IMG/VR virus record: IMGVR_UViG_3300021387_001666
Span: 32,001-96,000 of that record
DNA length: 64,000 bases
Origin: a virus
Lineage: Duplodnaviria; Caudoviricetes
Strand: one strand, 5' to 3'
The translations under genes were made by a program, and so were the position numbers. Shown piece by piece: positions 3,782-33,615 of this stretch. A model generated the notes under the pieces. It did not search any database. It was not told where the DNA came from and was given only the letters and a program-made list of their open reading frames with translations. The number at the start of each line of letters is the position of its first letter. Position 1 is the stretch's first letter.

Positions 3782-6700
3782 ATGAAGAAGAATAAGTTAT
3801 ATACAGTCAATGAATGGAACCAACCGGCATTTATGCTTAAGAATAGGTTTGATTGGGGAGGATTGGCAGCAGCAGACAGGAGAGCTAATCCTTGGAACTA
3901 TGTTGATGATGAAGACATTACCCAGCAATACATGAACTCCAAGAATGCCTTTGGAATTTCAAAGGCAGATAATCCTTTTAGTAAAGGTAATATTAAGAGT
4001 ACAGCAGCTGCTGTAGGCACAGCTTTGGCTCCAACTGTGGGGAGTCTTATCAGTGATGGCTATGAGTCAGGTGCTGGAGATGCTATAGGTACTGTTGGAA
4101 GTACTGTTGGAAATGCCTTAAAAACGGTTAATCCTCTTTTGGGAACTGCTGTTGATTTTGGCTCTCAGTTTCTTAAAGGACTTACCAACAGGGCTATTGG
4201 CATCAAGACAAACCAAGCAGCTTTGAACAGAGCCAATAATAGTATCAATACATTGAATGGCTTTGTAAGTAATGCAGGTTCTTTTGATGCCGTACAAGGC
4301 CCTGAGGCTGTGGCTACAGAGAAGGTCTATGAAGGAGGCTGGTTTAGTGGAAGCAAGGCAAGGAGGAAGAACAGAGCCCTTCAAGAGAGATTGAATAATG
4401 CCAAATCTTTTGCCTTCAGAAGTGTGGATAATAACATTAATAACTTAGCAGAAGACCAGATGAACAATGCACTGGCTAACTACAGTGCCTATGGTGGTCC
4501 TCTCGATATGCTTGAAGATACAACCAATATGGGAGCAATAGAATATGGTTTTATGAGTGACTATCTTACAGAGAAGAGACGTCAGAATGAATTAAAGAAC
4601 AAACTATCTGGTATGGCTACTGTTCCTGCCTTTATGCCAAACAGCTATGCTATTGGAGGTGATTTGCAGACTAATGGAGCGGATTTTTCTGATGGCCTAA
4701 CAATTATTAGTGCAGGAGGAACACATGAGTCAAATCCAAATGAAGGAGTACAGCTTGGTGTTGATTCAGAAAATGTTCCAAATTTAGTTGAAGAGGGTGA
4801 GACCATTTTCAATGATTATGTTTATAGCAATAGAATATTGGCTGATGAAGCCACTAAGCAGCTGTTTAGACTGCCTAAGAAAAAGGATATTACCTTTGCA
4901 GAGATTTCCAAGAAGCTTGAGAAGGAGATTGCAGAGAGACCCAACGATCCTATCAGTAAAAGTTCTTTTGAGAAACAGATGGCAGAACTGGCAGATGAGC
5001 AGGAGAGACAAAAGCAAGAGATGGAGGCTGAAAGAGCCAAGGCAGCTTTTGAAGCACTGACTCCTGAGGAACAGGCAGCTGTTATGCAAGAGGTTTCTGC
5101 AAGACAGAATATTGCTGCACAAGAGCAAGCTATAGCAGAGCAGCAAGCTATGCAGCAGCCTACTCCTGAGGAAGCAGCTATGATGCAGCAGCAACAGATG
5201 TTGCAGGCTGATGGTAGTGAGGCTGCTTTAGGGCAGGAGCCTCAGATGAATTGCTTTGGTGGTAAGATTAATAAGTTTGAGGAAGGAGGTAGAAAGAGGA
5301 ATGCAGGCACATGGAAGAAGGGAACTTCTTCAGAAAACTGGAATACCTATACAAGAGGAGGTCTGAGAGACTATCTGAACAGCATTATAGAAAGAGTGAA
5401 CAATGCTTCTTCTGAAGAAGAAAAGAATAAGATACGTCAGGAAGCCATCAAGACTGTAGGAGATATTCAGCAGGCCTATGCAAAGGCTTATCAGAGTAGT
5501 CTTACTCCCTCACAGGAAAATGAAGCTGTAAGAACTCTCCAGTCCTTATTCCAACAGGCTAATGGAAATGCCTACTTTGGCAATATCTCAGACAACATTA
5601 ATCTTCCAGCAGGCCACAATACTACAGATACAGAGAAAGGCGGTTATGTAGATGCCTTATGGGGACCAAGGACTTCTATCAGAAACTGGGGTTCTACAGA
5701 ATATGGAGATGCAGACTATTATAAAGACTTGGCAGACTTGGCTACTCAGGCAGGTTTAGTCTATGCTCCAAATGCAGACTGGACTTATGGTGATAATCAG
5801 CTATATGGACTCTCTATGCCAGCACCTGTCAATAATGAAGGTACTACTTCTACTGTTACACCTACAGGAAGGGTATTTCATGCAATGGATGGTGATGACT
5901 ATGATGGATATATAGAAGGTGCTTTTGGTCCTAATGTAGGAGCAGAAACCAGAAGAGAAGTTCTTCCAAATGGTGATACTGTTATCTATCATGGCAGAGC
6001 AAATGCTTCTGTTGGTAATGAAGGAGTAACAGCTCCTGGAACTAAGAATGACAGAGTGACTCCAAAGCATAAGGCAGGATGGCTGAGATATGCAGGACTG
6101 TTTGGACCTGCTGTAGGTCTTGGCTTACAGGCATTGGGTGTAGGCAGGCCAGATACTGCAAGTCTGGATGCAGCTATTAGCAGTTCAGGCGATGTAAATC
6201 TTGCAGACTATCAACCTATTGGTAACTATCTTACCTATAGGCCTCTTGATATATGGTATCAGCAAAATGCACTAAATGCCCAGAGCAGGGCTACTGACAG
6301 GGCACTTCTGAATAACAGCTCTCCATCAAGGATGTCAGGATTGCTGGCTAATGGCTACAACAGTCAGATAGCTTCAGGTAATTTGTTCAGACAAGCACAG
6401 GAATATAATGATGCTCTACAAAAACAAGTAGAGGAGTTTAACAGAGGAACTAACCAATTCAATGCTGAAGCTTATAACAGGAATAGTCAATTCAATGCAG
6501 ATGCAAAGAACAGGGCAAGACAGTATAATGCACAGCTGAGACTACAGGCAGCCAGAGAAAAAATAGATGCAGATGCAGGTTGGTATAATGGTCTCTATGG
6601 TAATCTGTCAGGTCTATTTAAGGGTATTAGTGATATAGGTCGTGAGAATGAGCAGTTTAACTGGCTTTCAGACCTTGCTGCTGATGGAGCCTTTGGCAAT

Positions 6701-6787
6701 CTTGGTACTAGCAACACTGGCAGAAGGTGGACTAAAGAGCAGAAAGCCAAGGGAGGCAAGATAAAGAAGAGAGGTTTAACTATTTAA
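3782..6787 (+). CDS. Internal virion cargo/ejection protein (crAss cargo-1-like)
   Basis: 1001 aa directly after the muzzle gene. Has Gly/Ala hydrophobic segments, GGTHESNPNEGV..VEEGET, a Q-rich coil, 11-residue FNA/YNA repeats and several xxGG motifs. Confidence 0.6.
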   Translation: MKKNKLYTVNEWNQPAFMLKNRFDWGGLAAADRRANPWNYVDDEDITQQYMNSKNAFGISKADNPFSKGNIKSTAAAVGTALAPTVGSLISDGYESGAGDAIGTVGSTVGNALKTVNPLLGTAVDFGSQFLKGLTNRAIGIKTNQAALNRANNSINTLNGFVSNAGSFDAVQGPEAVATEKVYEGGWFSGSKARRKNRALQERLNNAKSFAFRSVDNNINNLAEDQMNNALANYSAYGGPLDMLEDTTNMGAIEYGFMSDYLTEKRRQNELKNKLSGMATVPAFMPNSYAIGGDLQTNGADFSDGLTIISAGGTHESNPNEGVQLGVDSENVPNLVEEGETIFNDYVYSNRILADEATKQLFRLPKKKDITFAEISKKLEKEIAERPNDPISKSSFEKQMAELADEQERQKQEMEAERAKAAFEALTPEEQAAVMQEVSARQNIAAQEQAIAEQQAMQQPTPEEAAMMQQQQMLQADGSEAALGQEPQMNCFGGKINKFEEGGRKRNAGTWKKGTSSENWNTYTRGGLRDYLNSIIERVNNASSEEEKNKIRQEAIKTVGDIQQAYAKAYQSSLTPSQENEAVRTLQSLFQQANGNAYFGNISDNINLPAGHNTTDTEKGGYVDALWGPRTSIRNWGSTEYGDADYYKDLADLATQAGLVYAPNADWTYGDNQLYGLSMPAPVNNEGTTSTVTPTGRVFHAMDGDDYDGYIEGAFGPNVGAETRREVLPNGDTVIYHGRANASVGNEGVTAPGTKNDRVTPKHKAGWLRYAGLFGPAVGLGLQALGVGRPDTASLDAAISSSGDVNLADYQPIGNYLTYRPLDIWYQQNALNAQSRATDRALLNNSSPSRMSGLLANGYNSQIASGNLFRQAQEYNDALQKQVEEFNRGTNQFNAEAYNRNSQFNADAKNRARQYNAQLRLQAAREKIDADAGWYNGLYGNLSGLFKGISDIGRENEQFNWLSDLAADGAFGNLGTSNTGRRWTKEQKAKGGKIKKRGLTI

Positions 6788-6802
6788 TATGGAGGAGTAG
6801 AT

Positions 6803-8182
6803 ATGCAAAATTATAAAAGGGGTCAATATGACTTTGTTGTAGATTCAAATTTCACTCCATTTACCATGCAGGAGATGCTTGCACCTCTTAGCATGTATAA
6901 AGATGCTTATGAGAAGAGTGAAGAGGCCTATACTGACCTCACTGATAAGGCTGACCAGTTTAAGTACTTATCAGAGACTCTTCCTGAGGGCAGTCAGGCA
7001 AGGAAAATATATGAAGGCTATTCCAATGAGCTTAATGCACAAGCCCAAGACTTAGCCCAGAATGGTCTTAACATGGGTAACAGGAGAGCCTTGACCAATT
7101 TGAAAAGAAGATACCAAGGAGAAATAGGAAGGCTTGTAAGTGCTGATGCTGCCATGCGAGAGGAAAGGAAGCTTCGTAGAACTATGAATGCCAAGGACTC
7201 CAGTATGCTCTATGCTATGGATAATTTGAGTATAGATGATTTTATGGATGGAAATACTCCTAACCTCTATAACATCAGTGGTACAGAACTCTACACTAGA
7301 GGAGCAGCTGCTGGTAAGGCTGCATCATCAAGAGTGTATCAGGCAGGTGATGAAGGTTCTACACTTGGCGGCTACTATAGAAAGTGGGTAGAAAGGAATG
7401 GATACTCCAAAGAGAGTATGGATGCTTTCAGAGCAAATGCAGCTACTATACCAGAGCTTCAGCAAGCAGCTGATGCTATTCTTGCAGAGAGAGGAGTAAC
7501 TGAAAATCTGACAGGCAACAACCTTGAAAGAGCAAGGCAGTCTGTACTCAATGGTATCATTGATGGTGCAGTCTATCAGGAAAGTATCAAACCAGTGAGA
7601 GATGAGGGTAGAATGAGTGCAGCACAAGCAGCTAGTAATGCTTTAGGCTGGGCTAATCATAATGAGAGTGTGAGGATGCATAATCTGCAACTGAAAATGT
7701 CAGGCTATGATGAAAATGGTGTCTATCATCCTGAGAATGACCAGACCCTAAAGAAAGCACAAGCTGTTGCAGCAGCCAAAGGAAGTTCTGGTGGCAGTAG
7801 AGGAGGTAGCACCATGAAGGATACTCAAACCTCTGGCAGGGTAAGACTCACATGGAATGGTAATAATCCTAATGATACCAATGGTGATGCAGATGATGAT
7901 TACACTGTAGAAGCAGTAGCCAATGATAACACTGAACATCCTGGAGTTCTTTATAGTTATGACAGGCTTCCTACCTATGTAAAGAAAGCTATTGCTCCAT
8001 TGGTAGGTGATGGTAAACAGCATCTGTATGATTATTATTTCAAGCCATACGAAGGAGGATTCTTCGATGATAGTGAAGCAAGTGTAGAGCTTGTGCCTAG
8101 AAAGATTATCACCCAGAATAGAAATGGTTCAACCTCTGATGGAGGTAGTGATGATGGAGGTTTAAATGATATTCCAGAATAA
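6803..8182 (+). CDS. Putative virion cargo protein
   Basis: 459-aa helical protein co-transcribed between the cargo gene and the giant gene. Confidence 0.5.
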   Translation: MQNYKRGQYDFVVDSNFTPFTMQEMLAPLSMYKDAYEKSEEAYTDLTDKADQFKYLSETLPEGSQARKIYEGYSNELNAQAQDLAQNGLNMGNRRALTNLKRRYQGEIGRLVSADAAMREERKLRRTMNAKDSSMLYAMDNLSIDDFMDGNTPNLYNISGTELYTRGAAAGKAASSRVYQAGDEGSTLGGYYRKWVERNGYSKESMDAFRANAATIPELQQAADAILAERGVTENLTGNNLERARQSVLNGIIDGAVYQESIKPVRDEGRMSAAQAASNALGWANHNESVRMHNLQLKMSGYDENGVYHPENDQTLKKAQAVAAAKGSSGGSRGGSTMKDTQTSGRVRLTWNGNNPNDTNGDADDDYTVEAVANDNTEHPGVLYSYDRLPTYVKKAIAPLVGDGKQHLYDYYFKPYEGGFFDDSEASVELVPRKIITQNRNGSTSDGGSDDGGLNDIPE

Positions 8183-8199
8183 ACTAAAAGAGTATAAGT

Positions 8200-15619: not shown

Positions 15620-17911
15620 TTATTTTGGTCCTTTACCATTCTTATACCAATATTTTCCTGATGTTTCCCACCAGTCCTTAACAGCAGGGATTTGCCATGC
15701 TGTTTTACCAGCAGAATTAACATCTTTAGTATGCTTGGAATTTCCAGTATTATAATCTCCTTGGGCATAATACCTGAAAGCATCTAGTAAAGGAGGGGTA
15801 TTTCTATCTACATTGGCATTATTATATTGAAAGTTTCTCACTAAGTTTTCAGCAGGAATATAACCAAAAGCTGTAAAATAATTAGTATTACCTAATGCTC
15901 TATTATATATAGCATTTCCATCCTTATAGTTAAAATAAGGCATAGCCCCATTATGTGTTTCCTGAGTAGATAGTCCAAGCATCTCATTCATATTAATTTG
16001 TCTGGGAGCACCATATCTACTTCTTTTCTTGCGAGGATGTTCAGACAGTTGAGGGTTTCTATTATAAATACCTGCATATTTAGCCAGACTATCCAAGACA
16101 TTGGTTGAAGTAGTACTACCATTAATAAGAATAGATTTCTCAGGGATAAAAGGAATATCAAAGACAGGATTAGATGCTCCATTCTGAGCAGCATTATCTA
16201 CTATCTTTAGTTTCATCTGCCTTTCCAACCTCTCACTATCATTCTTTGTCTTTGAGGTATTTGGTCTTTGCCTCTTTGGAACCAGTTTCAATTCTTGTTT
16301 GTTTGGATAAACAGCTTTAATTACTTCAGCAGGCTTTCCTCTGTAAGTATATTGTTTTGATTTTTTCTCTGGTTCAGAAGAGAATAAACCTTTTAGCCAT
16401 TCTAAGAAACCACCATCTTCATATGTATTAGTCATAGCCATATCTACCATTGGCTCTTGAAGGGATCCTCCAAGTCCATGCTTCCAGTGTCTGCTATTCA
16501 GTGCAAAGGTAGCCATCTTCTTTTGAGCAGGAGTACCATGCTCCTTAAACCATGTGGCAGAATGACCTGTCCTCTCCTTCAGAGCGGTAAACTTTCCTCT
16601 ATTCTCTGGCTTGATATGGATTTTACCTCCTGAATCATACAGACTCATCATTTGGGCCACCTCTTTATAGTGCTCTCCAAAATACTTTGCATCATCCTCA
16701 TTATCAAATTTTATGGATTGCATATAGCTTCTCTGATCATTCTCAGGAGACCACACATTGTCTATAAATGCAAGGCCTCTGCCAGTATCTTGTATTTGAG
16801 GAGTTACCAGATTTTCATAAGACCCCACATATACATTGCCTCTTTTAGGTTCTCCAATACCTTTGTCATATTCATATTCCCCAGGCCATGTATAGCTTCT
16901 GGTGTCATAGTTAGTCATCCTCCTGGCAGTAGGATTGCCAAAATTGGCACTAATAGCCAGCTTTGACTTCATCATTCCAGTCATTGCAGGATTGGTATCT
17001 CCACCCTCAGCAAACTCATTATATTTGTCTTTGATTTCTTGAAGATTGGTAATACCGTTACTAACAGCTACCTTTATCATAGCAGCTTTCTCATTCATGG
17101 AAAGATTCTCCCATGCGTTTTTAGGTTGATACAAATAACCTCCTTCAGACATCTGTTTGATTGGTATATTGACTATAGGTTTACTAATTTTGAGTGCATC
17201 AGGTTGTTCAGTATGAGATGGGGCACTAACATTAAAGTTAGGTTTATAATCATCAGAATTTAGATTATATTTAGAGAAATATTGTTGCTTCCATTCCATT
17301 CGTTTCTGTGGAGAACCGATATATCTGAATGCAGTAGGAGTCCCAAGAGCATCTGATAAACTACTTAGTCTCTCATTTTTCTTCATTGTTGGGATAGTAT
17401 CTCCTTTATAAACTATATATGGAACACTATTTCCATTACTGTAGCTAAAAGTAGGCTCCCCTTTAAATGTTCTACCTGTCATAAGTACACTATGATGAGG
17501 TCCAAGTCTTTCGTCAGAAAATTGAACTAAATCTCCTTCTGCAACACTGTCTATTGGGATTACCTCAAATCCAAATTTATCAGGATTTCTTCTAAATGTT
17601 TTATTTCCTGAGACTTTAGCTCCCCTATCATTAAATTGACTAGTAGCAGTATATATACATGTTTCAGGATCAGCTGTTCCAAAGTATTTAATCCTTTCCT
17701 CATCTGACATTCCTATAATGGCAGCAGCAATGCTCCAAGGTGCTCTGCTTGGTATTATGGGGACATTAGGTGCAGTTTGTTGTAAAATATGAGAAGCTGC
17801 TGTACTTCTACTTTTAATAGCTTGCTCCTCTATATAACTTTCTAAAGATGGTATTGTGTAATTACCTTTAGGGGTTACTATTATCTCTCTTGTCAGGTAT
17901 TTCTTTGGCAT
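15620..17911 (-). CDS. Modular putative virion cargo protein with NlpC/P60-CHAP-like and lysozyme-like domains
   Basis: N-terminal ETCIYTAT..GDLVQF..PHHSVL gives a Cys/His dyad. The centre has an IHIKPENRGKFT module. The C-terminus has LSTQET..YNTGN. Modules are separated by xxGG motifs. Confidence 0.5.
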   Translation of the reverse strand: MPKKYLTREIIVTPKGNYTIPSLESYIEEQAIKSRSTAASHILQQTAPNVPIIPSRAPWSIAAAIIGMSDEERIKYFGTADPETCIYTATSQFNDRGAKVSGNKTFRRNPDKFGFEVIPIDSVAEGDLVQFSDERLGPHHSVLMTGRTFKGEPTFSYSNGNSVPYIVYKGDTIPTMKKNERLSSLSDALGTPTAFRYIGSPQKRMEWKQQYFSKYNLNSDDYKPNFNVSAPSHTEQPDALKISKPIVNIPIKQMSEGGYLYQPKNAWENLSMNEKAAMIKVAVSNGITNLQEIKDKYNEFAEGGDTNPAMTGMMKSKLAISANFGNPTARRMTNYDTRSYTWPGEYEYDKGIGEPKRGNVYVGSYENLVTPQIQDTGRGLAFIDNVWSPENDQRSYMQSIKFDNEDDAKYFGEHYKEVAQMMSLYDSGGKIHIKPENRGKFTALKERTGHSATWFKEHGTPAQKKMATFALNSRHWKHGLGGSLQEPMVDMAMTNTYEDGGFLEWLKGLFSSEPEKKSKQYTYRGKPAEVIKAVYPNKQELKLVPKRQRPNTSKTKNDSERLERQMKLKIVDNAAQNGASNPVFDIPFIPEKSILINGSTTSTNVLDSLAKYAGIYNRNPQLSEHPRKKRSRYGAPRQINMNEMLGLSTQETHNGAMPYFNYKDGNAIYNRALGNTNYFTAFGYIPAENLVRNFQYNNANVDRNTPPLLDAFRYYAQGDYNTGNSKHTKDVNSAGKTAWQIPAVKDWWETSGKYWYKNGKGPK

Positions 17912-17913
17912 AT

Positions 17914-18168
17914 TTATCTAATTAACGGTTCTATTATGCTACAGTAAACACAGGGAGTATAGATAAGCCTGTCTCTTTCAGACGCTATACAGCTATCTTT
18001 CTGTTCTGAAGTCCAGCCATTGTTTTCTGCTTTTCTTTCAGCTAAATCAACAGCAATAAGTAATTGGGTTTTATTTTTGGCCTTTTGCTGTTCTGTACAA
18101 GAATGGTTTTCTACAACTGCTAATCCAAGCAGTAGTACTCCTATTATTATATATAGTATTTTTTTCAT
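17914..18168 (-). CDS. Small exported or membrane-anchored protein (84 aa)
   Basis: MKKILYIIIGVLLLGLAVV signal/anchor; lies directly after a canonical promoter. Confidence 0.6.
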   Translation of the reverse strand: MKKILYIIIGVLLLGLAVVENHSCTEQQKAKNKTQLLIAVDLAERKAENNGWTSEQKDSCIASERDRLIYTPCVYCSIIEPLIR

Positions 18169-18186: not shown

Positions 18187-18217
18187 CAAATTTAAGAATT
18201 ATTTCTATATTGACAAA
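18187..18217 (-). promoter_or_regulatory. Canonical Bacteroidota promoter (-33 TTTG, 19-nt spacer, -7 TAAATTTG)
   Basis: CAAATTTA at 18187-18194 and CAAA at 18214-18217 on the + strand. Confidence 0.75.
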
Positions 18218-19282: not shown

Positions 19283-19930
19283 ATGAATAAACAGCAAGCT
19301 ATTATCATATTAGGTACAGCCCATAGGATGAGAGAGCCTGGAAAGGAATCTCCTGACAAGAGACTGAAGGAATGTATATATTCCAGAGAGCTGTGTAAAG
19401 AGATAGCTGATAAGCTAAGAGCATACGGCTGTAAGGTAGAGATAGACTATGAACCTCTTGACTTACCAAGAAGTATGCAGTCTCCCAACTATAAGCAGGA
19501 GCTGAATAATGAGCTGGCTATGAGGGTTAACTATGTCAATGAAATATGCAGACAGAAAGGTGCTAAGAATGTATTGTATGTTTCTATTCATGTAGATGCT
19601 TCAGGCAGTGATGGTCAGTGGCATAATCCTAATGGTTGGAGTGTAAGAGTCAGTCTTAATGCCTCAGAGAACAGCAAAAAGCTGGCAGGATGTCTGTTTG
19701 ACACAGCTAAGCAGAAAGGTCTTAAAGTAAGACAGCCTTCTATGTCTCAGAAATACTGGCCTCAGAATCTATTTGTATTGAGGAACACAGAATGTCCCGC
19801 AGTGTTGACAGAAAATTTATTTCAGGATAACAAAGCTGATGTAGATTACCTGCTGTCAGATGTTGGCAGGCATGTAATAGCAAGACTTCATGTAGAGGGA
19901 ATATTGAAATATGTTAGTGATGCGAATTAA
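19283..19930 (+). CDS. N-acetylmuramoyl-L-alanine amidase endolysin (Amidase_3)
   Basis: LGTAH..E, SIHVDA and PAVLTENLF zinc/catalytic motifs. Confidence 0.85.
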   Translation: MNKQQAIIILGTAHRMREPGKESPDKRLKECIYSRELCKEIADKLRAYGCKVEIDYEPLDLPRSMQSPNYKQELNNELAMRVNYVNEICRQKGAKNVLYVSIHVDASGSDGQWHNPNGWSVRVSLNASENSKKLAGCLFDTAKQKGLKVRQPSMSQKYWPQNLFVLRNTECPAVLTENLFQDNKADVDYLLSDVGRHVIARLHVEGILKYVSDAN

Positions 19931-20075: not shown

Positions 20076-20083
20076 TATCTTTG
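20076..20083 (+). promoter_or_regulatory. -7 promoter element for the portal gene
   Basis: TATCTTTG overlaps the TTG start called by the ORF track, so the real start is probably ATG 20111. Confidence 0.7.
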
Positions 20084-20110
20084 CCTACAAAAAGAGTAAA
20101 GATTGTTTTT

Positions 20111-22516
20111 ATGGCATATAGTGCAATAGGAGGTTTTCCTCCTCAACAGTTAAGCTTCAGCAGGAAGAATAAGGCATGGAGGGTAAAATGTGTGGACTTT
20201 GCAGATGACCACAGCATTATGAGGAACCATGCTGCAGGAAAGTCATGGTATAACATGATGATAAACTATGACCTCATCAATGGAAAGATACACATGTCTG
20301 ACATTAAGGCTGTAGTAAATCCCTTTGGACTTGATGCATCTTTTATTCCAGATAATATTCAGCATTATTCAGTTATTAACCCAAAGCTGAATGTGCTTAG
20401 GGGTGAGGAAAGTGAAAGACTGTTTGATCCAAGACTGGTAGTTACTAATCCTACAGCCATCAGTGAGATGGAAGAGGAAAAGAATAAACAGGTGAATGCA
20501 AGGCTCCAGCAGCTTATTATGGATACCTCCCAGAGTGAAGAGGAGTTTCAGCAGCAACTTCAAAAGCTGGATGACTACTTTAACTATGAGTATCAGGACA
20601 AAAGGGAAATCAGAGGTAATCTGTTTCTCAGTCACTACTCAAGAGAGCTGGAATTTTCCCAGAAGTTCAATAAAGGCTTTGTGGATGCCTACACTGTAGG
20701 AGAGGAGATTTATCAGTGTGATATTGTAGGAGGAGAACCAACTCTTGAAAAGATAAGACCTATGGAGCTTGGTATTATCAGAAGTGGTGACTCTGACAGG
20801 ATAGAAGATGCAGATATGCTTATCCTTCAGAGATATAAGAGTCCAGGCTGGGTAATAGATGCTTATTGGGATCAGTTATCCAAGAAAGACATCGAGAGGA
20901 TAGAGGAGGGTAGTAATGGTGAATACAGCGGTTGGAAGGATTCTATGGATAACATAGATGCAAGACCAGGCAATCCATTAGTACCTGTACCTTGTGACTG
21001 GCAGGCAGGAGACAGCCATATCAATGCCAGTGAGCTCTTTAATGATGATAACTATACCAATATGACTCCCTATGACATTAATGGTAATGTCAGAGTATTG
21101 ACAGTCTATTGGAAGTCAAGAAGAAAAATCAAGAAAGTAAAAAGCTATAATCCTGAGACAGGTGAAGAAGAGTTCAACTTCTATCCAGAGACCTATCATT
21201 GTGATCCCATGAAGGGAGAGGAAGAGCAGATATTCTGGATTAATGAGGCATGGGAGGGCACTAAGATAGCAGAAGACATCTATGTCAACATGAGGCCCAG
21301 ACCTATACAATATAATAGGTTAAGCAATCCTTCTGTATGCCATTTTGGAATTGTAGGAAGTATCTATTCTATTAATGGTGATGAGCCCTATTCACTGGTA
21401 GATGCAGTAAAGCCTGATGCATACTTCTATGATATTGTCAGGGATAAGCTGATTAAGCTTATTTCCAAGAATATGGGCAAGTTGGCAAGAATGGACTTTG
21501 CCAAGATACCCAAAGGATGGGATATAGATAAATGGCTATATTTTGCCACTGTCAATGGTATAGCTGTTGAGGATAGCTTCAAGGAAGGAACAATAGGAGC
21601 CTCCACAGGTAAACTGGCAGCAGGACTTAACAATGCTTCCAATGGCGTTATAGATGTATCTTTAGGAAATGAGATACAATTCCACCTCAACCTACTTGAG
21701 TGGATAGCTAATAATATAGGTGAACTGGCTGGTATCTCAAGACAGAGAGAAGGACAGATAAGTAACAGAGAAACTGTAGGTGGTGTTGAAAGGGCAACCC
21801 TTCAGTCAAGCCATATTACCAAATGGCTATTCTTTATTCATGACAGTGTAAAGAAGAGAGCTATCGAATGTTTCCTTGAGACAGCTAAGATAGCCTATAA
21901 AGGCAGAAAAATTAAGTTTAACTACCTACAGCCTGATGGTAGCAGGAAACTTGTTGAGATAGATGGTGATGAGTTTGCAGAATGTGACTATGGTCTTGTA
22001 GTAGATACTGGTAATGATGTGCAGGAGCTTATGCAGAACCTTGGACAGCTTGCACAGGCAGGTCTTCAGAATGACAAGATGAACTTCTCTACCCTGATTA
22101 AGATTTATCTCACCAAGAGTCCTACAGAGAAGCAGAGACTTATTGAAAGATATGAGCAGAAAGTGGAGGAACAACAGAGGCAAGCTCAGCAGCAACAGCA
22201 GCAGCAGTTTGAGCAGCAGTTACAGCAGCAGGCTCAGCTTGAACAGGCTAAGATGGATAGAGAATATCAGATGCATCAGGAGAAGCTCCAGAATAACATC
22301 CTTACTTCTGAAATTGCATCTCAGGCAGAGGCTCAAAGATTTGCCATGATGAATCATGATAATGATGAAGCCAATGACATTGAGAGAGAGAAGATAGCTG
22401 AGAATGCAAGACAATTTGATGCTAAATTGAAACTGGATACTAAGAAGCAGGCTGATGATGCAAGACTCAAGGAGAAACAAATTCAAGTGACCAAGCAGAA
22501 AGCCATTAATAAATAG
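20111..22516 (+). CDS. Portal protein
   Basis: About 800 aa with PPQQLS..K, NYDLING, INPKLNVLRGEE, WINEAWEGTKI and GISRQREGQISNRETVGGVERA, typical of crAss-like portals. Q-rich C-terminal coil. Confidence 0.85.
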   Translation: MAYSAIGGFPPQQLSFSRKNKAWRVKCVDFADDHSIMRNHAAGKSWYNMMINYDLINGKIHMSDIKAVVNPFGLDASFIPDNIQHYSVINPKLNVLRGEESERLFDPRLVVTNPTAISEMEEEKNKQVNARLQQLIMDTSQSEEEFQQQLQKLDDYFNYEYQDKREIRGNLFLSHYSRELEFSQKFNKGFVDAYTVGEEIYQCDIVGGEPTLEKIRPMELGIIRSGDSDRIEDADMLILQRYKSPGWVIDAYWDQLSKKDIERIEEGSNGEYSGWKDSMDNIDARPGNPLVPVPCDWQAGDSHINASELFNDDNYTNMTPYDINGNVRVLTVYWKSRRKIKKVKSYNPETGEEEFNFYPETYHCDPMKGEEEQIFWINEAWEGTKIAEDIYVNMRPRPIQYNRLSNPSVCHFGIVGSIYSINGDEPYSLVDAVKPDAYFYDIVRDKLIKLISKNMGKLARMDFAKIPKGWDIDKWLYFATVNGIAVEDSFKEGTIGASTGKLAAGLNNASNGVIDVSLGNEIQFHLNLLEWIANNIGELAGISRQREGQISNRETVGGVERATLQSSHITKWLFFIHDSVKKRAIECFLETAKIAYKGRKIKFNYLQPDGSRKLVEIDGDEFAECDYGLVVDTGNDVQELMQNLGQLAQAGLQNDKMNFSTLIKIYLTKSPTEKQRLIERYEQKVEEQQRQAQQQQQQQFEQQLQQQAQLEQAKMDREYQMHQEKLQNNILTSEIASQAEAQRFAMMNHDNDEANDIEREKIAENARQFDAKLKLDTKKQADDARLKEKQIQVTKQKAINK

Positions 22517-24532: not shown

Positions 24533-24751
24533 ATGGTAGTAATGTTTAAGATGACTCCTGAAAAGAAGGAGAAATTTAGCAAGAAGATAGACAAGATGAT
24601 GGACTTCCTTGAGGAGTTCAAAGAGTGTCTGGAGGATTCTGAGGACTATGATGAAGAGGAGTATGAGGAGCCTATGTATCGTGGTGGCAGTATGTCAAGA
24701 CGTGGTGGTTCTTTTATGAGAAGCCGTTATAGCCGTAGGGATGGAATGTAA
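24533..24751 (+). CDS. Small protein with an acidic tract and RGG/RY-rich tail
   Basis: 72 aa; EDSEDYDEEEYEE then YRGGSMSRRGG..RSRYSRR. Confidence 0.7.
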   Translation: MVVMFKMTPEKKEKFSKKIDKMMDFLEEFKECLEDSEDYDEEEYEEPMYRGGSMSRRGGSFMRSRYSRRDGM

Positions 24752-24799: not shown

Positions 24800-24814
24800 A
24801 AAATAACAAAGACT

Positions 24815-25702: not shown

Positions 25703-25710
25703 TATTTTTG
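25703..25710 (+). promoter_or_regulatory. -7 promoter element for the fibre genes
   Basis: TATTTTTG 17 nt before ATG 25728. Confidence 0.6.
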
Positions 25711-25727
25711 CAAAAACTATTAATAGT

Positions 25728-26678: not shown

Positions 26679-26690
26679 AATAATACAGCT

Positions 26691-27224: not shown

Positions 27225-27234
27225 ACTCTAAGTT

Positions 27235-27405: not shown

Positions 27406-27409
27406 TAAT

Positions 27410-28090: not shown

Positions 28091-28102
28091 ATTTGAAACA
28101 TT

Positions 28103-30703
28103 ATGGCAAACAAGAAAACAGGTGATATTGAAATAGGTGGCAGACTGTTTAATACTGCTACTGGTAATATAGTTGCTGGTGCTGATGCTATCAAGGATGA
28201 GGCAAAAGGCAAGACTCAAGCTGAAATAAATGTTGAGACTTATGAGCATGTGGCTGACATTAATGCTGCACTTCAAGAACTCAGTCCCGACCAAACAGAG
28301 GCTCTTGCACTGGCTACAGATGTGGTAAATTTAAAAGGAGATGTTGACCAAGGTGCAGTCTTTGATGTAAGTGCCAAATATCCTACAAGTGGTGTGGATG
28401 GTGGCAATACTTATACTCTTGAAGGTGCGCTTGCTGTACTTAATGCTAATCTTCCTGCCAGCAAGAAGAAGGGTGGAATGAGCATCAAGTTTGTACAGAG
28501 TTCTGACAACAAGTATGTGCAGTATAGATTGATGGCTGATGCATGGAGTGATGATACTGATGATTGGTTTATTTCAGAAGAAGGTGTTTATGTAGAGAAT
28601 CCTGAGTTTGTCTATGTAAAGACAGATGCAGAAAATAAAATCTTATGGGCTATTAAGGCTGACGGCAGTATTTACTATGGTGCAGGATGTCCACAACAAG
28701 TAAAGGACTACATTGAAGAAAAACTCTCATCATTATCTCTTGACGAATATGAGGATATAGTTGCTTTCATGAACGGCTTAGAAGAAGGGGACAAAACCTT
28801 ACAGCAGCTATTGACTGAAAAACTTGATGCAGAAGGATTGGATGCTAATGCTCTTGGCACAATTGAAGTTATTGAAAATCAAGAGTGGATTGATGTTAAG
28901 ACAGACTCAGAGGGTAAAATCCTTGAAGGAGTTAAGGCTGACGGGACTAAGGTTATTGAACTACCTCTTGAAATACAAGGAGTACGTCAGGAAACTGTTG
29001 ATAATCCTGAATTTATACAAGTTACTACTGATTTGGAAGGGAAGATTATTGAAGGGACTAAAAAGGATGGCAAAAAGGTGTTCTTCGCTGGGATTGAAGG
29101 AGTGGTTATGGATGCCGATATTGATAAATTAGAACATGATGTAGAATATGCCAATAGCCAAATTGCTTCTCTTACTGATGAGATTAAAGATATAGATGGC
29201 TGCTATCATGGAAATAATGCTATTGAACTGGCATATATTGACATGAACTCTACACTTGTTTCAAGTCATTTGAAGAATGGAGAAAAAGGACTTGTAGTTA
29301 GTGCAAGACCAGAACTTGTAATAAAGGATAGCCAAGGCAATGTAACTATTAACGATGATGTTGATTATATATGCTCGTCTGCATTCCTTTATGGCACAGT
29401 TTATTATAAGGTGTTCAGCGATATAGTCAATGGTGTTACAGAATGGTTCTTTGTTGAATATGATGAAAAGGCTGGATACAACAACTTAAAGAGCGCCTCT
29501 GTTCCTCTTATGGAAACTATGCCAGACTATAGTCAAGAATCCTGGGATTGGAGTAAAGATGTAAATGGGAGGTACACTATTATGCAACAGGTCTATGACT
29601 ATCTTGATGCTTTGATGGTTGAAAACCCTACTGTTATGGAAAAGTATGACCCAATGGCTACTCAGGATTATGAAGAAGATGGTGTAACTATTCGTGCTAT
29701 GCCAAAATTACGTGAATGGGACACTAATCCTCCGATTATACAATACATGATTAATCATGGGTATAGCCAGTATCCTTTTTGGTATAATGGTATTTCGGAA
29801 GGAGATTATGATATAACTGTAGGAAGTAACATTTATCATGCACATCTTAAAGCAACACCGAAGTTTAAAACTTTTGTATATAAGTTAAGTAAAAAAGATA
29901 TATGGTATTCAACAAGAAGCAATAGTAAAAAGATTGCAAGAAGAACATTGTATATTCAGGCGGGTGTTCATGGTGACGAGAATATGGGTCCTGTTGCTAC
30001 TGCACATTTGGTCAAGGAGCTTCTCAGCGACTCAAAGGGGGCTTATTCAGTATTAGCCAATTATGATGTTTATATTCTGCCGGTTCTTGACGGCTATAAC
30101 TCTTTGCATGGTTCATACAATGGTGCTTATGGCACTAATGCCAACAGGAATTATCCTACTCCTTGGTGGAGAGAAGAAGATGCTGCATGGGGACTGGCTG
30201 CTGGTGACTATTTTGTCACACGACTTGCCTGTGCTTTTATAGATGTTTTCAAACCAGATGTAGCATTTGATGTGCATGACCAGACTGCTACTGCTCTTGA
30301 TAGCCAAGGAAACTATTTCCATGACTTTGGATATTTCTGTAGTGGCCTTTACCATACTTGCCACCAGATGTATCAGACTGTTGCGGAGATATTGAATGTA
30401 GTTCGCAATACACAAAGATTTGAGCAATACTTTGGTACTAAAAACCAAATTCCTCAGTTCAGTGCTCGGTGTGAAAGAATGAATGCGGCTCATGCTCACG
30501 ATTATTTCTTCTACAAGGATATGAGAACATCAGGACTTATGGAACTTCCAAGTAGTATTAACTGGGTAGCACAGGAAGATGGTAGTTGTATATCACAAAG
30601 AGTTATTGAAAATGACTATAATGTTCATACATGGGAACTTGCAGCACTAATTCTAATTAACTTTACTTATGGAATGTGCGAATATAATTTGATAACAAAA
30701 TAA
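28103..30703 (+). CDS. Tail fibre/spike with three ~25-aa repeats and a C-terminal M14 zinc-carboxypeptidase-like domain
   Basis: Repeats ENPEFVYVKTDAENKIL / ENQEWIDVKTDSEGKIL / DNPEFIQVTTDLEGKII; M14 motifs AGVHGDE, NANRNY and FDVHD. Confidence 0.65.
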   Translation: MANKKTGDIEIGGRLFNTATGNIVAGADAIKDEAKGKTQAEINVETYEHVADINAALQELSPDQTEALALATDVVNLKGDVDQGAVFDVSAKYPTSGVDGGNTYTLEGALAVLNANLPASKKKGGMSIKFVQSSDNKYVQYRLMADAWSDDTDDWFISEEGVYVENPEFVYVKTDAENKILWAIKADGSIYYGAGCPQQVKDYIEEKLSSLSLDEYEDIVAFMNGLEEGDKTLQQLLTEKLDAEGLDANALGTIEVIENQEWIDVKTDSEGKILEGVKADGTKVIELPLEIQGVRQETVDNPEFIQVTTDLEGKIIEGTKKDGKKVFFAGIEGVVMDADIDKLEHDVEYANSQIASLTDEIKDIDGCYHGNNAIELAYIDMNSTLVSSHLKNGEKGLVVSARPELVIKDSQGNVTINDDVDYICSSAFLYGTVYYKVFSDIVNGVTEWFFVEYDEKAGYNNLKSASVPLMETMPDYSQESWDWSKDVNGRYTIMQQVYDYLDALMVENPTVMEKYDPMATQDYEEDGVTIRAMPKLREWDTNPPIIQYMINHGYSQYPFWYNGISEGDYDITVGSNIYHAHLKATPKFKTFVYKLSKKDIWYSTRSNSKKIARRTLYIQAGVHGDENMGPVATAHLVKELLSDSKGAYSVLANYDVYILPVLDGYNSLHGSYNGAYGTNANRNYPTPWWREEDAAWGLAAGDYFVTRLACAFIDVFKPDVAFDVHDQTATALDSQGNYFHDFGYFCSGLYHTCHQMYQTVAEILNVVRNTQRFEQYFGTKNQIPQFSARCERMNAAHAHDYFFYKDMRTSGLMELPSSINWVAQEDGSCISQRVIENDYNVHTWELAALILINFTYGMCEYNLITK

Positions 30704-30727
30704 TATAACTTTTTAAAAATTAAAAAT

Positions 30728-31489: not shown

Positions 31490-31531
31490 CACAAAAAACC
31501 ATAGTTCTTGTAATAACTAGGTACAAAAGGC

Positions 31532-31583
31532 AGTCACTTCGGTGACTTTAATCTAAAAAGTCCCATCCTCAGTGGTGGGACTT
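31532..31583. other. Two tandem hairpins after the fibre cluster
   Basis: AGTCAC-TTCG-GTGACT (cUUCGg tetraloop) and AAGTCCCA..TGGGACTT. Confidence 0.65.
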
Positions 31584-31624
31584 ATAAAACAAATAAAGAT
31601 AATAAAGAATATAAAACAAAAGTT

Positions 31625-31783
31625 ATGTTTGGTTTTCTTAAAAGATTATGCTGTAAACACGAGTATGAATGGAAACGCAATATTTATGGTGATGAAATAA
31701 ATTATTGTGGTGGGAAACGTTCAATATGGAAGTGTAAGAAATGTGGTAAAATTCAATATAGAGATAAATTATATGGAAAATAG
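31625..31783 (+). CDS. Small Zn-ribbon-like protein (52 aa, not in the ORF track)
   Basis: MFGFLKRLCCKHEY..WKCKKCGK; overlaps the next start. Confidence 0.7.
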   Translation: MFGFLKRLCCKHEYEWKRNIYGDEINYCGGKRSIWKCKKCGKIQYRDKLYGK

Positions 31784-32153
31784 TTTTGCAATGCCTATTG
31801 GCGGCAAAAGTATTTTAAGAAGTACTGGTGAAGAAGTTGAGATTATTGACTTTGAAGCTAAAATTCGTGGTGATAGAGCTGATGAAGATTGGGTTACTTA
31901 TATTGATTCAGAAGGCAAGGAGCATATTAAGGAACATCTTAATATTCAGCTGGACTTTAAGACTGTCGCTAATGACACTTTTGGTAAATTGCTAGACATA
32001 GCTAAACCAAATAAATATCCTACTGAAAGAAATAGAAGAATATTTGAAGTAGCTAAGGAACTTTATTTAAATGGAAATAGAGGATATGGAATTAATGAAG
32101 CTGTAGAAGTAGCTACCAATCTTGTTGATAAAGTCGGAATTGAAACTGAATAA
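31773..32153 (+). CDS. Hypothetical protein
   Basis: ATG 31773 (MENSFAMPIGG) is preferred to GTG 31707. Confidence 0.65.
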   Translation: MENSFAMPIGGKSILRSTGEEVEIIDFEAKIRGDRADEDWVTYIDSEGKEHIKEHLNIQLDFKTVANDTFGKLLDIAKPNKYPTERNRRIFEVAKELYLNGNRGYGINEAVEVATNLVDKVGIETE

Positions 32154-32279
32154 AAATACCAGAAAAATGGATTGTAGTAGGTCGTCTTCATCTGAATCCA
32201 TGAACCCGTAAAACAGATATTCTGACAGGTGACAGACCATGAGGTAATTCTCTAGGAGTGCAGTAATGAAGACAAAAAG

Positions 32280-32306
32280 AATCCCATCCTTAATAAGGGT
32301 GGGATT
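32280..32306. terminator. Terminator between convergent units
   Basis: AATCCCATCCTT-AAT-AAGGGTGGGATT. Confidence 0.75.
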
Positions 32307-32326
32307 TATCATATAAAACAGACAGC

Positions 32327-32551
32327 CTATCTTTTCCTGCCAATATCTCTTATATTAACCATTCCAGAAATCAAGTTCGCTAAAACATTCCTGCCAAAGT
32401 CATCCTCATTCTCTTGGTGATGATGGGCTAGGTGAGTGTTAATCACTCCTATAATCTGTCTGAGCATAAGATTATTTTCATGCACCTCACTGTAGAGCTC
32501 ATTTAAAGTTCTCTGAAGCCTTCTTTCTTCCCTTGTGGTCATCTGTACCAT
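32327..32551 (-). CDS. Small helical protein
   Basis: 74 aa; ENNLMLRQI..EDDFGRNVLANLIS. Confidence 0.6.
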   Translation of the reverse strand: MVQMTTREERRLQRTLNELYSEVHENNLMLRQIIGVINTHLAHHHQENEDDFGRNVLANLISGMVNIRDIGRKR

Positions 32552-32669
32552 TCTTTAAATATCTCCTAACCTCAGGCATCCCAGACATCTTCTTGAGTGT
32601 TTCAATCACCTGTTTCCTTGAGCTGCCTGTAAAATGTGCAAGCTGATTGATGATAACATCTTGATTCAT
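32499..32669 (-). CDS. Small basic protein (56 aa, not in the ORF track)
   Basis: MNQDVIINQLAHFTGSSRKQVIETLKKM..; ATGA overlap with the upstream stop. Confidence 0.5.
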   Translation of the reverse strand: MNQDVIINQLAHFTGSSRKQVIETLKKMSGMPEVRRYLKNGTDDHKGRKKASENFK

Positions 32670-33001
32670 ACACTCTGTTCTATTGTAGGTTCTGTTTCAA
32701 AATCCTTTTCTGTAAGTTCCTGCTTTGAGTTATTGTTTGGATTAAACCCAAAGTTACCAGAGAACATACTGCCCATCAAGCCAAGAAGTGCAAAGTCTGG
32801 GACATTGGTATGATCAATATCTTCATACACTTCCATAGTCAGTACCTTTAGATACATCTCTATAGCAATCTTCCTGTTCTCAATCATCTTCTTCTTGTTA
32901 GGAGAAAGTTTGCTATACTTCTCACTATTCATGTAGTCTACTAATCTCAGGAGCCTGTTTTTCAGTTCTACCTGTTCTACTTTCAATCTCAAATCTTCCA
33001 T
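32666..33001 (-). CDS. Helical-hairpin protein resembling the crAss001 gp48-like family
   Basis: RLKVEQVELKNRLLRLVDYM..YSKLS..EMYLKVL pattern; starts after the promoter. Confidence 0.5.
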   Translation of the reverse strand: MEDLRLKVEQVELKNRLLRLVDYMNSEKYSKLSPNKKKMIENRKIAIEMYLKVLTMEVYEDIDHTNVPDFALLGLMGSMFSGNFGFNPNNNSKQELTEKDFETEPTIEQSV

Positions 33002-33022
33002 AACACTAAATATTTGATAGTG

Positions 33023-33127
33023 CAAAGATAACAGTTCTATAGTAAGAATAAAAACAATGCCGATTGTAAGGATTGGTTATAAGTTTTATTAGTGTGTAAG
33101 CCATTAAGAATAGGCTGTATATCTTTG
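33023..33127. promoter_or_regulatory. Divergent promoter pair
   Basis: TATCTTTG on the - strand (33023-33030) and on the + strand (33120-33127). Confidence 0.7.
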
Positions 33128-33154
33128 CAGTATCAATATTAAAGAAGAGTAGAT

Positions 33155-33439
33155 ATGTTTAATTTCAAGAAGTTGGTTGTTAAGTACCTGAGGGAGGCTA
33201 TTCAGATGATAGAAAATGATGATTGTGAATTGTCTGATACTGAAGCTATGGATATAGTGAAGGTAATAGCTCACAGGCCTATGAGTAAGGAGCAAGCCTG
33301 CAATTATCTTAATTTAAGTAGGAGCAGATTTGATGATCTTGTTAGAGAAAGAAAGATACCCAGAGGAAAGAAAAAAGTAGGATTTAAAGAATTGTACTGG
33401 TATCAGGATGAGTTGGATTTCTGTAAGAAAGACAGGTAA
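33155..33439 (+). CDS. Excisionase/AlpA-like HTH DNA-binding protein
   Basis: MSKEQACNYLNLSRSRFDDLVRERKIPRG..W. Confidence 0.75.
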   Translation: MFNFKKLVVKYLREAIQMIENDDCELSDTEAMDIVKVIAHRPMSKEQACNYLNLSRSRFDDLVRERKIPRGKKKVGFKELYWYQDELDFCKKDR

Positions 33440-33442
33440 AAA

Positions 33443-33474
33443 TTTGGTAGAATTAATTATAATGTTTAACTTTG
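33443..33474 (+). promoter_or_regulatory. Canonical Bacteroidota promoter
   Basis: TTTG, 20-nt spacer, TAACTTTG. Confidence 0.7.
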
Positions 33475-33489
33475 CAAATAGAAATGTAT

Positions 33490-33615
33490 ATGGCAAGTAA
33501 GAAAAGTAGAGGTTCTAATGGAAGAGCAAAACCAGCAATACCTAAAGCAGGAGTTACCAAGAACAGAGCTAGAAGGTACGACTGTGGAGGTAAAATCAAA
33601 ACTAAAAGTAAGTAG
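33490..33615 (+). CDS. 41-aa basic peptide ending YDCGGKIK (not in the ORF track)
   Basis: ATG 15 nt after the promoter; MASKKSRGSNGRAKPAIPKAGVTKNRARRYDCGGKIKTKSK. Confidence 0.6.
   Translation: MASKKSRGSNGRAKPAIPKAGVTKNRARRYDCGGKIKTKSK

Follow-up and report, generated by a model that had tools for sequence, protein, structure and literature searches.

A 64-kb window of the 108,188-bp genome of a crAss-like phage (IMG/VR record IMGVR_UViG_3300021387_001666, positions 32,001 to 96,000) encodes two proteins that carry repeated copies of a short Gly-Gly peptide: cargo protein 1 (C1), a homologue of gp45 of crAss001, and a 763-aa mosaic protein on the opposite strand, here called P0002. A first-pass annotation had described the peptide as [YF]xxGG, listed examples from both proteins and from the end of a basic 41-aa open reading frame (ORF), and proposed it to be an address or cleavage signal by which unrelated domains are packaged in the head and ejected. 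We found that the peptide is better written as N-x-[FY]-x-x-G-G-x-[LIVM] and that, at the level of sequence, it is a real and conserved motif, specific to C1-type proteins and the mosaic proteins related to them, where it recurs at the borders of exchangeable modules.

Enrichment of the motif in C1 and P0002

Every peptide listed in the first-pass annotation was found at the genes named, but the literal pattern covers only part of them: in C1, it fits FDWGG, YAIGG and FEEGG as well as the unlisted YTRGG, but not SAYGG, CFGGK or KAKGG, and in P0002 it fits FAEGG, YDSGG and YEDGG, but not MSEGG or HGLGG. The non-literal instances SAYGG, CFGGK and KGGK of C1 are conserved variants in the aligned homologues. 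Across the genome (112 ORFs of at least 60 aa, 32,748 aa in total), [YF]xxGG occurs at chance level, with 13 copies against 10.5 expected; it is concentrated in C1 (4 against 0.65 expected, P ~0.004) and in P0002 (3 against 0.38 expected, P ~0.005). The stricter form N-x-[FY]-x-x-G-G was found six times in the genome against 0.73 expected, with a maximum of 4 in 300 shuffles, and all six copies lie in these two proteins. The earlier concern that the motif might be equally frequent in non-virion proteins is answered by this count, since the stricter motif occurs 0 times outside the two. The same form was present 235 times in 120 C1 homologues against 7.8 expected, and [YF]xxGG 343 times against 56.5 expected in a set of 123 proteins (P0002, 120 listed homologues and two C1 proteins). 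In the 901 GG contexts of this set, Asn at position -5 was enriched 4.2-fold, Phe and Tyr at -3 5.6- and 3.5-fold, Ala at -2 3.4-fold, Glu at -1 3.1-fold, and Leu and Ile at +3 3.9- and 3.4-fold; Asp at -1 was enriched too. Two module ends joined together would account for tandem copies such as NEFAEGGNIYKEGG or WKHGLGGNLFDDGG.

We considered whether glycine-rich linkers and common aromatic residues could yield the pattern without selection. The genome-wide count of [YF]xxGG is compatible with this, the copies in proteins of 226, 253, 391 and 3815 aa resemble background, and GG dipeptides as such are not enriched (10 against 9.1 expected in C1 and 5 against 4.0 in P0002). However, the shuffles were made within proteins and kept their composition, and yet N-x-[FY]-x-x-G-G exceeded expectation 8-fold in the genome and 30-fold in the 120 C1 homologues; moreover, the positions of the sites are conserved at 45-60% sequence identity. 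An origin by chance is hardly credible as a whole, and for the refined motif these statistics exclude it. The enrichment and the conserved sites support a motif that is non-random and specific to C1-type proteins.

Two further candidates were set aside. The copy at the C-terminus of the 391-aa protein (...SFLDGGFRLAL) was taken as chance, as GG is kept in 1 of 7 usable relatives, an eighth locus (L029) with a truncated read being left out, and a signal at the nucleotide level (a Shine-Dalgarno-like or recombination sequence) was dropped because the sample was too small, with GGAGG in 6 of 8 motif copies compared to 40 of 96 other GG dipeptides. The 391-aa protein itself (L004:969-2144, plus strand, outside the window) is acidic, coiled-coil-rich by eye and encoded directly ahead of the major capsid gene, which makes it a scaffold candidate; its C-terminus, DPESF[LV]xxGF[RK]LxL, is conserved in 7 relatives. 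In the available text of the papers that could be searched, including Bayfield et al. 2023 and Iyer et al. 2017, the motif is not described.

Conserved motif sites in C1

C1 carries the portal-binding domain CARG1 (PF25725, crAss_CARG1) at aa 290-422, with 166.9 bits against a cut-off of 27 (E 3.1e-49). In a phmmer comparison it matched crAss001 gp45 (PDB 7qog_M) with an E value of 1e-73 in the stretches 184-294, 268-420 and 763-1000. The conservation of the individual sites, given in Table 1, was read from an alignment of 64 of the 120 homologues, which were picked by hand with most sequences having long insertions left out. In the AlphaFold model, the copies lie in or at the edge of stretches with a low predicted local distance difference test score (pLDDT), namely 18-26, 236-260, 274-321, 468-504 and 988-1001. 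NRFDWGG falls in the first of these, where pLDDT is below 50, and NYSAYGGPL closes a long helix (190-237) ahead of the second. The second GG of NCFGGKINKFEEGGRK, in the stretch 468-504 with pLDDT below 50, has an aromatic residue at -3 in all 46 homologues that keep it, and in some homologues the mid-site of C1 reads NRYDKGGKIK.

Copies of the motif are also present in gp45 at sites equivalent to those of C1. The gp45 segments reported as ordered, 214-245 at the tail barrel and 425-552 at the portal, are bracketed by copies at 209-210, 263-264, 427-428 and 562-563. The first segment begins 4 residues past the GG equivalent to SAYGG, and the equivalent of NSYAIGGDL, A425-F-G-G-W, opens the portal-bound domain in the published model. 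The C-terminal KGGK[ILM]K of C1 has a matching tail both in gp45 and in the C1 of phage cr85_1.

P0002, a mosaic protein sharing a module with C1

P0002 matched no PHROG and no Pfam family at E <=0.01, the NlpC/P60 sequence family included. Its 1,332 homologues at E <=1e-3 share pieces of it only, and the analyses of P0002-like proteins reported here are based on the best 120 of these. The AlphaFold model of the N-terminal part revealed an NlpC/P60 fold: in VIA-align, 26 chains reached Z >=8, and NlpC/P60 domains stood at the top of the ranking along with endolysins and other cell-wall hydrolases; the Z to 8er5_B was 11.6 (root-mean-square deviation 2.7, 111 residues). C85, at the start of the helix 85-93, and H139/H140, in the strand 137-147, are candidate catalytic residues. 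Judged from the model, this domain is probably a peptidoglycan endopeptidase. Amidase_6 was matched by one homologue and TseH by another.

The enzyme domain is followed by three modules, ModA, ModM and ModB, each of which was traced with a hidden Markov model of our own. ModA is carried by 108 of the 121 P0002-like proteins and by none of the 120 C1 proteins; in the homologues, a peptide of the form [WYH]xEGG[FS]L lies about equally far upstream of it as MSEGGYL does in P0002. ModM, with pLDDT in ten-residue blocks mostly of 64-93 and minima at ~331-340 and 421-424, was present in 30 of 121 P0002-like proteins and, again, in 0 of 120 C1 proteins. ModB follows the pattern GGxIHIKP...WKHGxGG, of which HGLGG is the conserved end, and was detected in 108 of 121 P0002-like proteins and in 33 of 120 C1 proteins, as well as in the C1 of cr85_1 (212-267) and in gp45 (372-429). 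The ModB of P0002 is 64% identical to the stretch within cr85_1 C1. With its three helices, the module may be similar to domains of this build that bind peptidoglycan. In the phage studied here, ModB is absent from C1 and carried by P0002 as a separate protein. A Foldseek search of the whole 763-aa model against the PDB gave nothing at E <=0.001 and barely probed ModA, ModM and ModB, an Atlas search with aa 262-490 returned no usable feature match, and an IMG/VR peptide-pattern search for relatives of P0002 and of the membrane protein described below confirmed none.

The partner domains found next to these modules vary and comprise phage lysozyme, tail lysozyme, glucosaminidase, SLT, TseH-like, Amidase_6, ART-PolyVal, CARG1 and an intein. 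On account of its NlpC/P60-fold domain, these varying partners and the shared ModB, we take P0002 to be a cell-wall hydrolase of mosaic make-up that has ModB in common with C1, which is a known type of virion protein. Its gene adjoins the cargo block and also an amidase gene. Both C1 and P0002 are probably injected into the host, and we infer that P0002 is virion cargo. A role in lysis is possible as well, since P0002-like genes adjoin the pair of tiny ORF and membrane-protein gene described below in two related contigs. Upstream of P0002 we observed an 84-aa ORF (17914-18168, minus strand), itself preceded by a promoter-like TTTG-N19-TAAATTTG at 18187-18217; 3 nt separate the end of this ORF from the start of the P0002 gene, which makes co-transcription of the two probable.

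Copies of the motif at module borders

The motif was found on the N-terminal side of ModB in 120 of 143 copies and on its C-terminal side in 121 of 143, and at the C-terminal border of ModA in 95 of 108 copies. In C1 variants, each inserted module has a copy on both sides (e.g. in P0128 and P0155). An all-against-all BLAST comparison of 242 P0002-like and C1 proteins showed that a motif is no more than 5 aa away from 21.5% of the interior ends of high-scoring segment pairs (n=9,929) and from 13.3% of the interior starts (n=10,983), compared to 4.9% of random positions; as the pairs are related, these percentages are a description and not a P value. In the model of P0002, the copies lie in or beside low-confidence stretches between confident modules, with NEFAEGG closing the helix 290-301. 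The earlier statement that the copies fall between apparent domains thus held for both proteins, with copies in low-pLDDT stretches between folded segments and homology breakpoints enriched nearby, the exception being YTRGG within a folded helical domain of C1.

Table 1 Features of the window discussed in the text (positions are those of the window; GG counts refer to the 64 aligned C1 homologues).
Feature	Position	Strand	Basis and remarks
Muzzle protein	2-3652		PF25731 (Pfam/PHROG scan)
Cargo protein 1 (C1)	3782-6787	+	1001 aa, crAss001 gp45 homologue
NRFDWGG	3842-3862	+	Closes conserved N-terminal leader; GG in 49/64, of these aromatic(-3) in 47 and N(-5) in 44
NYSAYGGPL	4478-4504	+	Variant; GG in 62/64, N(-5) in 55, hydrophobic(+3) in 62
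NSYAIGGDL	4640-4666	+	CARG1 domain start; GG in 64/64, aromatic(-3) in 60
CARG1 portal-binding domain	4649-5047	+	PF25725
NCFGGKINKFEEGGRK	5249-5296	+	Double copy past Gln-rich helix; first GG (CFGGK) in 64/64, second (FEEGG) in 46/64
NTYTRGGL	5342-5365	+	In folded helical domain; GG in 8/64; helix-helix turn, pLDDT >90
KAKGGKIKKRGLTI	6743-6784	+	Basic conserved C-terminal tail; GG in 59/64, hydrophobic(+3) in 59/59, aromatic(-3) in none
Cargo protein 2 (C2)	6803-8182		PF25712
P0002, mosaic protein	15620-17911	-	763 aa; NlpC/P60-like domain, ModA, ModM, ModB, poorly modelled C-terminal part (AlphaFold)
NTYEDGGFL	16403-16429	-	In low-pLDDT stretch 479-703
ModB	16460-16639	-	~60 aa, three helices; from YDSGGKIHIKP to WKHGLGGSL
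ModM	16640-16999	-	Folded alpha/beta module (AlphaFold)
ModA	17000-17128	-	Two-helix module ending in NEFAEGG; helices 272-284 and 290-301
MSEGGYL	17132-17152	-	Degenerate copy, linker past enzyme domain; pLDDT <50 at 241-263
NlpC/P60-fold domain	17306-17833	-	aa 27-202; VIA-align on AlphaFold model
Amidase	19283-19930		Pfam/PHROG scan
Portal	20081-22516		Pfam/PHROG scan
Promoter-like TTTG-N20-TAACTTTG	33443-33474	+	Pattern match, 15 nt before tiny ORF
Tiny basic protein	33490-33615	+	41 aa, conserved family; ends in RRYDCGGKIKTKSK
Small multi-pass membrane protein	33653-33970	+	Partner of tiny ORF

A family of tiny basic proteins ending in the motif

The 41-aa ORF pointed out in the first-pass annotation exists and proved to be a genuine conserved gene, with the motif as the most conserved part of its product. 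In an exhaustive phmmer search of 1.84 billion representatives we obtained 18 homologues at E <=1e-3, which are 30-55 aa long and 50-79% identical. They share the consensus M..GR[AP]KPxxPKAGVTKNxxRRYxCGGK[LIMV]K, with K19, R29, Y30, G33, G34 and K35 as invariant residues; KCGGK[LI]K is repeated in two members. With a back-translated DNA pattern, the ORF was located on 13 IMG/VR contigs. Comparison of 14 sequences showed that codon position 3 differs in 55% of the pairwise comparisons as opposed to 28% and 25% for positions 1 and 2, and that 9 of the 14 are interrupted by stops in the overlapping +1 frame. The gene lacks an annotation in GenBank PQ006092. No homologue of the protein was found at E <=1 in the other records of the phage collection, crAss001 included, and a DNA search of this collection with 32600-34800 gave no match.

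The end of the tiny protein fits the motif at -3, at both glycines and at +3, without Asn at -5, and its RRYDCGGKIK is close to the above variant of the C1 mid-site. A profile comparison between the tiny family and the C1 alignment gave a probability of 5% over 11 columns and detected no homology beyond the motif. The family's GR[AP]KP resembles an AT-hook; the core of this DNA-binding element is Arg-Gly-Arg-Pro, which is not matched, and this assignment was rejected.

The canonical promoter that had been placed directly before the ORF was confirmed in part. There is a promoter-like match to TTTG-N20-TAACTTTG, a class that we take to be the Bacteroidota-type promoter consensus, but the class is not significant in the window, with 5 matches against 2.3 expected. 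Five of 13 related loci have, as judged by eye, a TAnnTTTG box at most 70 nt upstream. In all 13 loci, a gene for a multi-pass membrane protein of 122-162 aa comes after the tiny ORF or overlaps with it; this protein is homologous to the product of 33653-33970. The latter had no Pfam or PHROG match, and its nearest Atlas cluster, 'putative phage holin' with a score of 0.88, is a lead only. For the 41-aa peptide as a minimal DNA-binding cargo or a decoy, as put forward in the first-pass annotation, we obtained no support; the gene conserved next to it codes for this membrane protein and is not a virion gene. By eye, a protein of ~93-126 aa resembling the helix-turn-helix (HTH)-like product of 33155-33439 adjoins the pair in most of the 13 loci. 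The window (33155-33970) and the loci L007-L019 thus hold a conserved cassette of an HTH-like ~93-aa protein, the tiny basic protein and the membrane protein, in which the membrane-protein gene often starts within the codons for RRYGCGG of the tiny protein; L019 has two tiny ORFs in tandem. Three of 14 loci (L009, L014 and L016) have a C1-like or P0002-like gene beside the tiny ORF and membrane-protein gene.

A JAB/E1 gene block

Outside the window and among replication genes, the minus strand carries a block of five genes (G000:C1:97761-102998; L005:2761-7998). These encode a 256-aa protein, a 408-aa protein, a 421-aa JAB protein, a ThiF/E1-like protein and a 240-aa protein. The first of these ends in ...IRSGA, and its N-terminal part looks ubiquitin-like by eye only. 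The JAB protein has an intact E...HxH-x7-S-xx-D signature that is invariant in 38 homologues and a weak match to Pfam Prok-JAB (E 0.015). The E1-like protein matches PF00899 (5e-17) and the PADLOC model E1-E2 (3.5e-12), and E1 is present in 81 phage records. Membership in the PRTRC family was rejected for this protein, which scored 41.3 bits against the NCBIfam PRTRC_ThiF cut-off of 144.75; its best NCBIfam match is ThiF with 70.8 against a cut-off of 159, i.e. E1-like and below the curated score. The block is kept in cr85_1, where two of its products are annotated as 'metalloprotease domain' and 'ThiF' after crAss001. By its predicted gene products, the block would be a PRTRC/Bil-like tagging cassette. 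Our literature search returned no paper joining crAss-like phages with ThiF, and none joining a Crassvirales cargo protein with peptidoglycan.

Cargo genes and other features of the genome

The gene order muzzle, C1, C2 is preserved with respect to crAss001, and the next gene codes for a 2383-aa protein that has the position of gp47 and a weak similarity to it (E 3e-4). A 1310-aa protein is the homologue of crAss001 gp49 (E 2e-52), and the C-terminal ~1,500 residues of a 3815-aa protein are homologous to gp50 (E 2e-125). By mass spectrometry, gp45 (C1), gp46 (C2), gp47, gp49 and gp50 were reported in crAss001 virions (Bayfield et al. 2023, PMC10172136); for the C1 type, presence in virions comes from mass spectrometry and cryo-electron microscopy (cryo-EM) of crAss001 gp45 only (PMC10172136).

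In the 3815-aa protein, a homologue of the gp50-type virion RNA polymerase (38775-50222, minus strand), the homologous part spans aa 2342-3713. The N-terminal part contains a Kinase-PolyVal domain (319-482) and a Dda/PIF1-like helicase (528-971), and a single GFRRGGKIH at aa 275-283 lies immediately ahead of the kinase domain. Upstream of the capsid gene and outside the window, a 1153-aa protein (L003:16328-19789, plus strand) with LAGLIDADG_3 at aa 790-855 is probably an intein-bearing terminase large subunit; the C1 homologue P0114 is likewise interrupted by an intein. The genome also encodes a tyrosine integrase (L003:11604-12749, minus strand, outside the window) with matches to Phage_integrase, Phage_int_SAM_5 and Arm-DNA-bind_5. 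Among the tail-region genes, an 866-aa protein (28103-30703, plus strand) has a zinc carboxypeptidase (Peptidase_M14) stretch at aa 603-689. Two further small proteins have distinctive tails: a 72-aa ORF product (24533-24751, plus strand) with an acidic first half followed by an Arg/Gly/Ser-rich tail ...YRGGSMSRRGGSFMRSRYSRRDGM, and a helical 71-aa protein without family match (L003:13417-13632, plus strand, outside the window) with a short basic GGK tail ...NIKATGGKVSRRK.

Discussion

We favour, with some reserve, the reading that the motif is uncut punctuation, a hinge or junction between the exchangeable modules of the C1 family and of the mosaic cell-wall hydrolases sharing ModB. Each copy would close one small, independently folding module and open the next, with the aromatic residue, often together with the Asn, closing the last helix turn of the module, Gly-Gly breaking the helix and providing a hinge, and the aliphatic residue beginning the next element. 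The chain would then resemble beads on a string that fold, unfold and thread singly through the portal and the tail channel, as was proposed for crAss001 gp45, and the beads could be swapped, inserted or deleted at the joints without damage to their neighbours. In the AlphaFold models, a helix ends at several of the copies. A role in hinging and threading is what we infer for the motif, and a number of points weigh against it. A pure hinge does not need the conserved Asn and aromatic residue, and the pattern is also the most conserved part of a 41-aa protein having no modules to join and makes up the conserved extreme C-terminal tail of C1; these two instances speak for a role of the motif beyond that of a joint. 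The secondary-structure context is uneven, YDSGG following coil and HGLGG lying 4 residues past a helix end, and low pLDDT does not prove flexibility. Furthermore, our counts overstate the number of independent events because the homologue sets share ancestry.

Alternatively, the motif could be a short linear tag read by one common partner, either a loading site at the procapsid, portal or scaffold or a host factor at ejection, with internal, terminal and stand-alone copies all being read. This narrows the address of the first-pass annotation to the C1 family, and we regard it as possible but rather doubtful. It is in line with the conservation of specific residues beyond the glycines in very different contexts, the invariant R29, Y30, G33, G34 and K35 and the repeated KCGGK[LI]K of the tiny family, the nearness of the C1 mid-site to the tiny RRYDCGGKIK, the C1 tail KGGK[ILM]K in 59 of 64 homologues, and the 3 of 14 loci in which the tiny-plus-membrane cassette lies beside a C1-like or P0002-like gene. 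As a general address for packaging in the head, however, the motif does not hold up: C2 and the three proteins of the virion RNA polymerase type (gp47-, gp49- and gp50-type), homologues of cargo shown by mass spectrometry, lack it above chance and so it cannot be a general loading signal. Copies of [YF]xxGG number 0 in C2, 0 in the 2383-aa protein, 0 in the 1310-aa protein and 2, of the background type, in the 3815-aa protein; in crAss001 there are 0 in gp46, gp49 and gp50, and 3 without Asn in gp47. In addition, the other gp45 copies are unseen in the symmetric cryo-EM maps as reported, just outside the ordered segments, the acidic internal copies (NEFAEGGD) and the basic terminal ones (KGGKIKK) are hard to fit to one pocket, the profile comparison of the tiny family with C1 gave the low probability stated above, and the gene constantly present beside the tiny one codes for a holin-like membrane protein and is not a virion gene. 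It is the tiny protein, together with the conserved terminal copies, that still leaves room for such a tag.

Processing at the motif appears improbable to us. The proteins would be polyprotein-like precursors cut at or after GG, perhaps by the phage JAB/MPN metalloprotease encoded beside the ThiF/E1-like enzyme, and the cuts would set modules free or take the short basic tail off C1 and the tiny protein. JAB enzymes typically cut after a C-terminal Gly-Gly, which singles out the JAB/E1 block as the one recognisable candidate source of a processing enzyme; no tie between it and the motif was found. The intact JAB signature, the adjoining E1-like gene and the retention of the pair in cr85_1 fit such a scheme, and so do natural ends lying 1-10 residues past GG in C1 tails, tiny proteins and many P0002-like proteins (...GGNLFE, ...GGLMTKF), which resemble those of ubiquitin-like precursors. 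The evidence on virion proteins, however, speaks against cleavage, the second function that the first-pass annotation had suggested. The published gp45 model for 425-552 begins at A425 (A-F-G-G-W) and runs unbroken through G428 to W429, which shows the chain intact across the GG of this one copy; Bayfield et al. 2023 (PMC10172136) treat gp45 as a single 90.8-kDa chain spanning the portal, and their main text makes no mention of cleavage, proteolysis or a protease. The text of Shkoporov et al. 2018 (PMC6235969) gives band sizes for the crAss001 virion gel with no assignment to gp45. Our Pfam and PHROG scans found no protease family in the structural module, the JAB/E1 block has its own candidate substrate in the 256-aa protein and is located among replication genes, and 1 of 5 near-complete contigs with the tiny gene has no JAB match, a weak point as this contig is 91% complete. 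A complex prediction, run without controls on alignments of 38 rows for JAB aa 1-185 and 19 rows for the tiny protein, gave scores of 0.00 and 0.00 and counts neither way. It would be more far-fetched still, and we think very improbable, that the motif is a ubiquitin-style handle, in which JAB would trim the basic extension past GG on the C1 tail, on the tiny protein and perhaps on internal copies, the E1-like enzyme would activate the exposed glycine, and pieces of cargo would be ligated to lysines of the virion or the host. If true, this would be a phage-encoded protein-tagging pathway acting on the phage's own injected proteins.

The closest known counterpart of C1 is gp45 of crAss001 (PMC10172136; PF25725; PDB 7qog chain M), with which it shares the CARG1 domain, similarity at the N- and C-termini and synteny with the muzzle, C2 and RNA-polymerase-type genes. 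Equivalent motif copies and a ModB-like module at 372-429 are present in gp45 as well; the module lies within gp45, whereas here it is part of the separate 763-aa protein. The polyvalent proteins of Iyer, Burroughs, Anand, de Souza and Aravind 2017 (PMC5512222) are likewise strings of exchangeable effector domains that are probably co-delivered with DNA, and some P0002 homologues have ART-PolyVal, just as the 3815-aa protein of the window has Kinase-PolyVal. For the polyvalent proteins, processing by a zincin-like metallopeptidase was proposed (PMC5512222), whereas no such metallopeptidase was found here and the domains are mostly cell-wall hydrolases. The main text of PMC5512222 does not mention a linker or glycine.

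Better-known peptides offer partial parallels. GG-directed processing is known from ubiquitin-like precursors trimmed by JAB and deubiquitinase (DUB) enzymes, from double-glycine leader peptides (LSxxELxxIxGG) and from adenovirus protease sites ((M/L/I)xGG). Common to these and our motif are a hydrophobic residue before Gly-Gly, short extensions past GG at natural C-termini and the JAB and E1-like genes in the genome. In contrast, there is no ubiquitin-like fold ahead of the copies, one copy is uncut in the crAss001 virion model, and the consensus is unlike LSxxELxxIxGG or (M/L/I)xGG. Internal proteins of T4 carry one capsid targeting sequence, at the N-terminus, which the prohead protease removes. 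The underlying idea is the same, a short portable peptide bringing unrelated proteins into the head, but the copies described here are multiple and internal, a prohead protease was not found, and most of the cargo lacks the motif.

In crassviruses, the most abundant human gut phages, the motif bears on the question of how a protein cargo of ~5 MDa is loaded and driven through the tail, C1 being the sole cargo protein seen in the head as well as in the tail. A family-conserved motif that marks the module borders of C1 gives a concrete experimental handle on this protein, and the analysis has revealed an unannotated family of tiny-protein genes with a matching peptide. As a junction between modules, the motif would account for the continued swapping of cell-wall-cutting modules by these phages.

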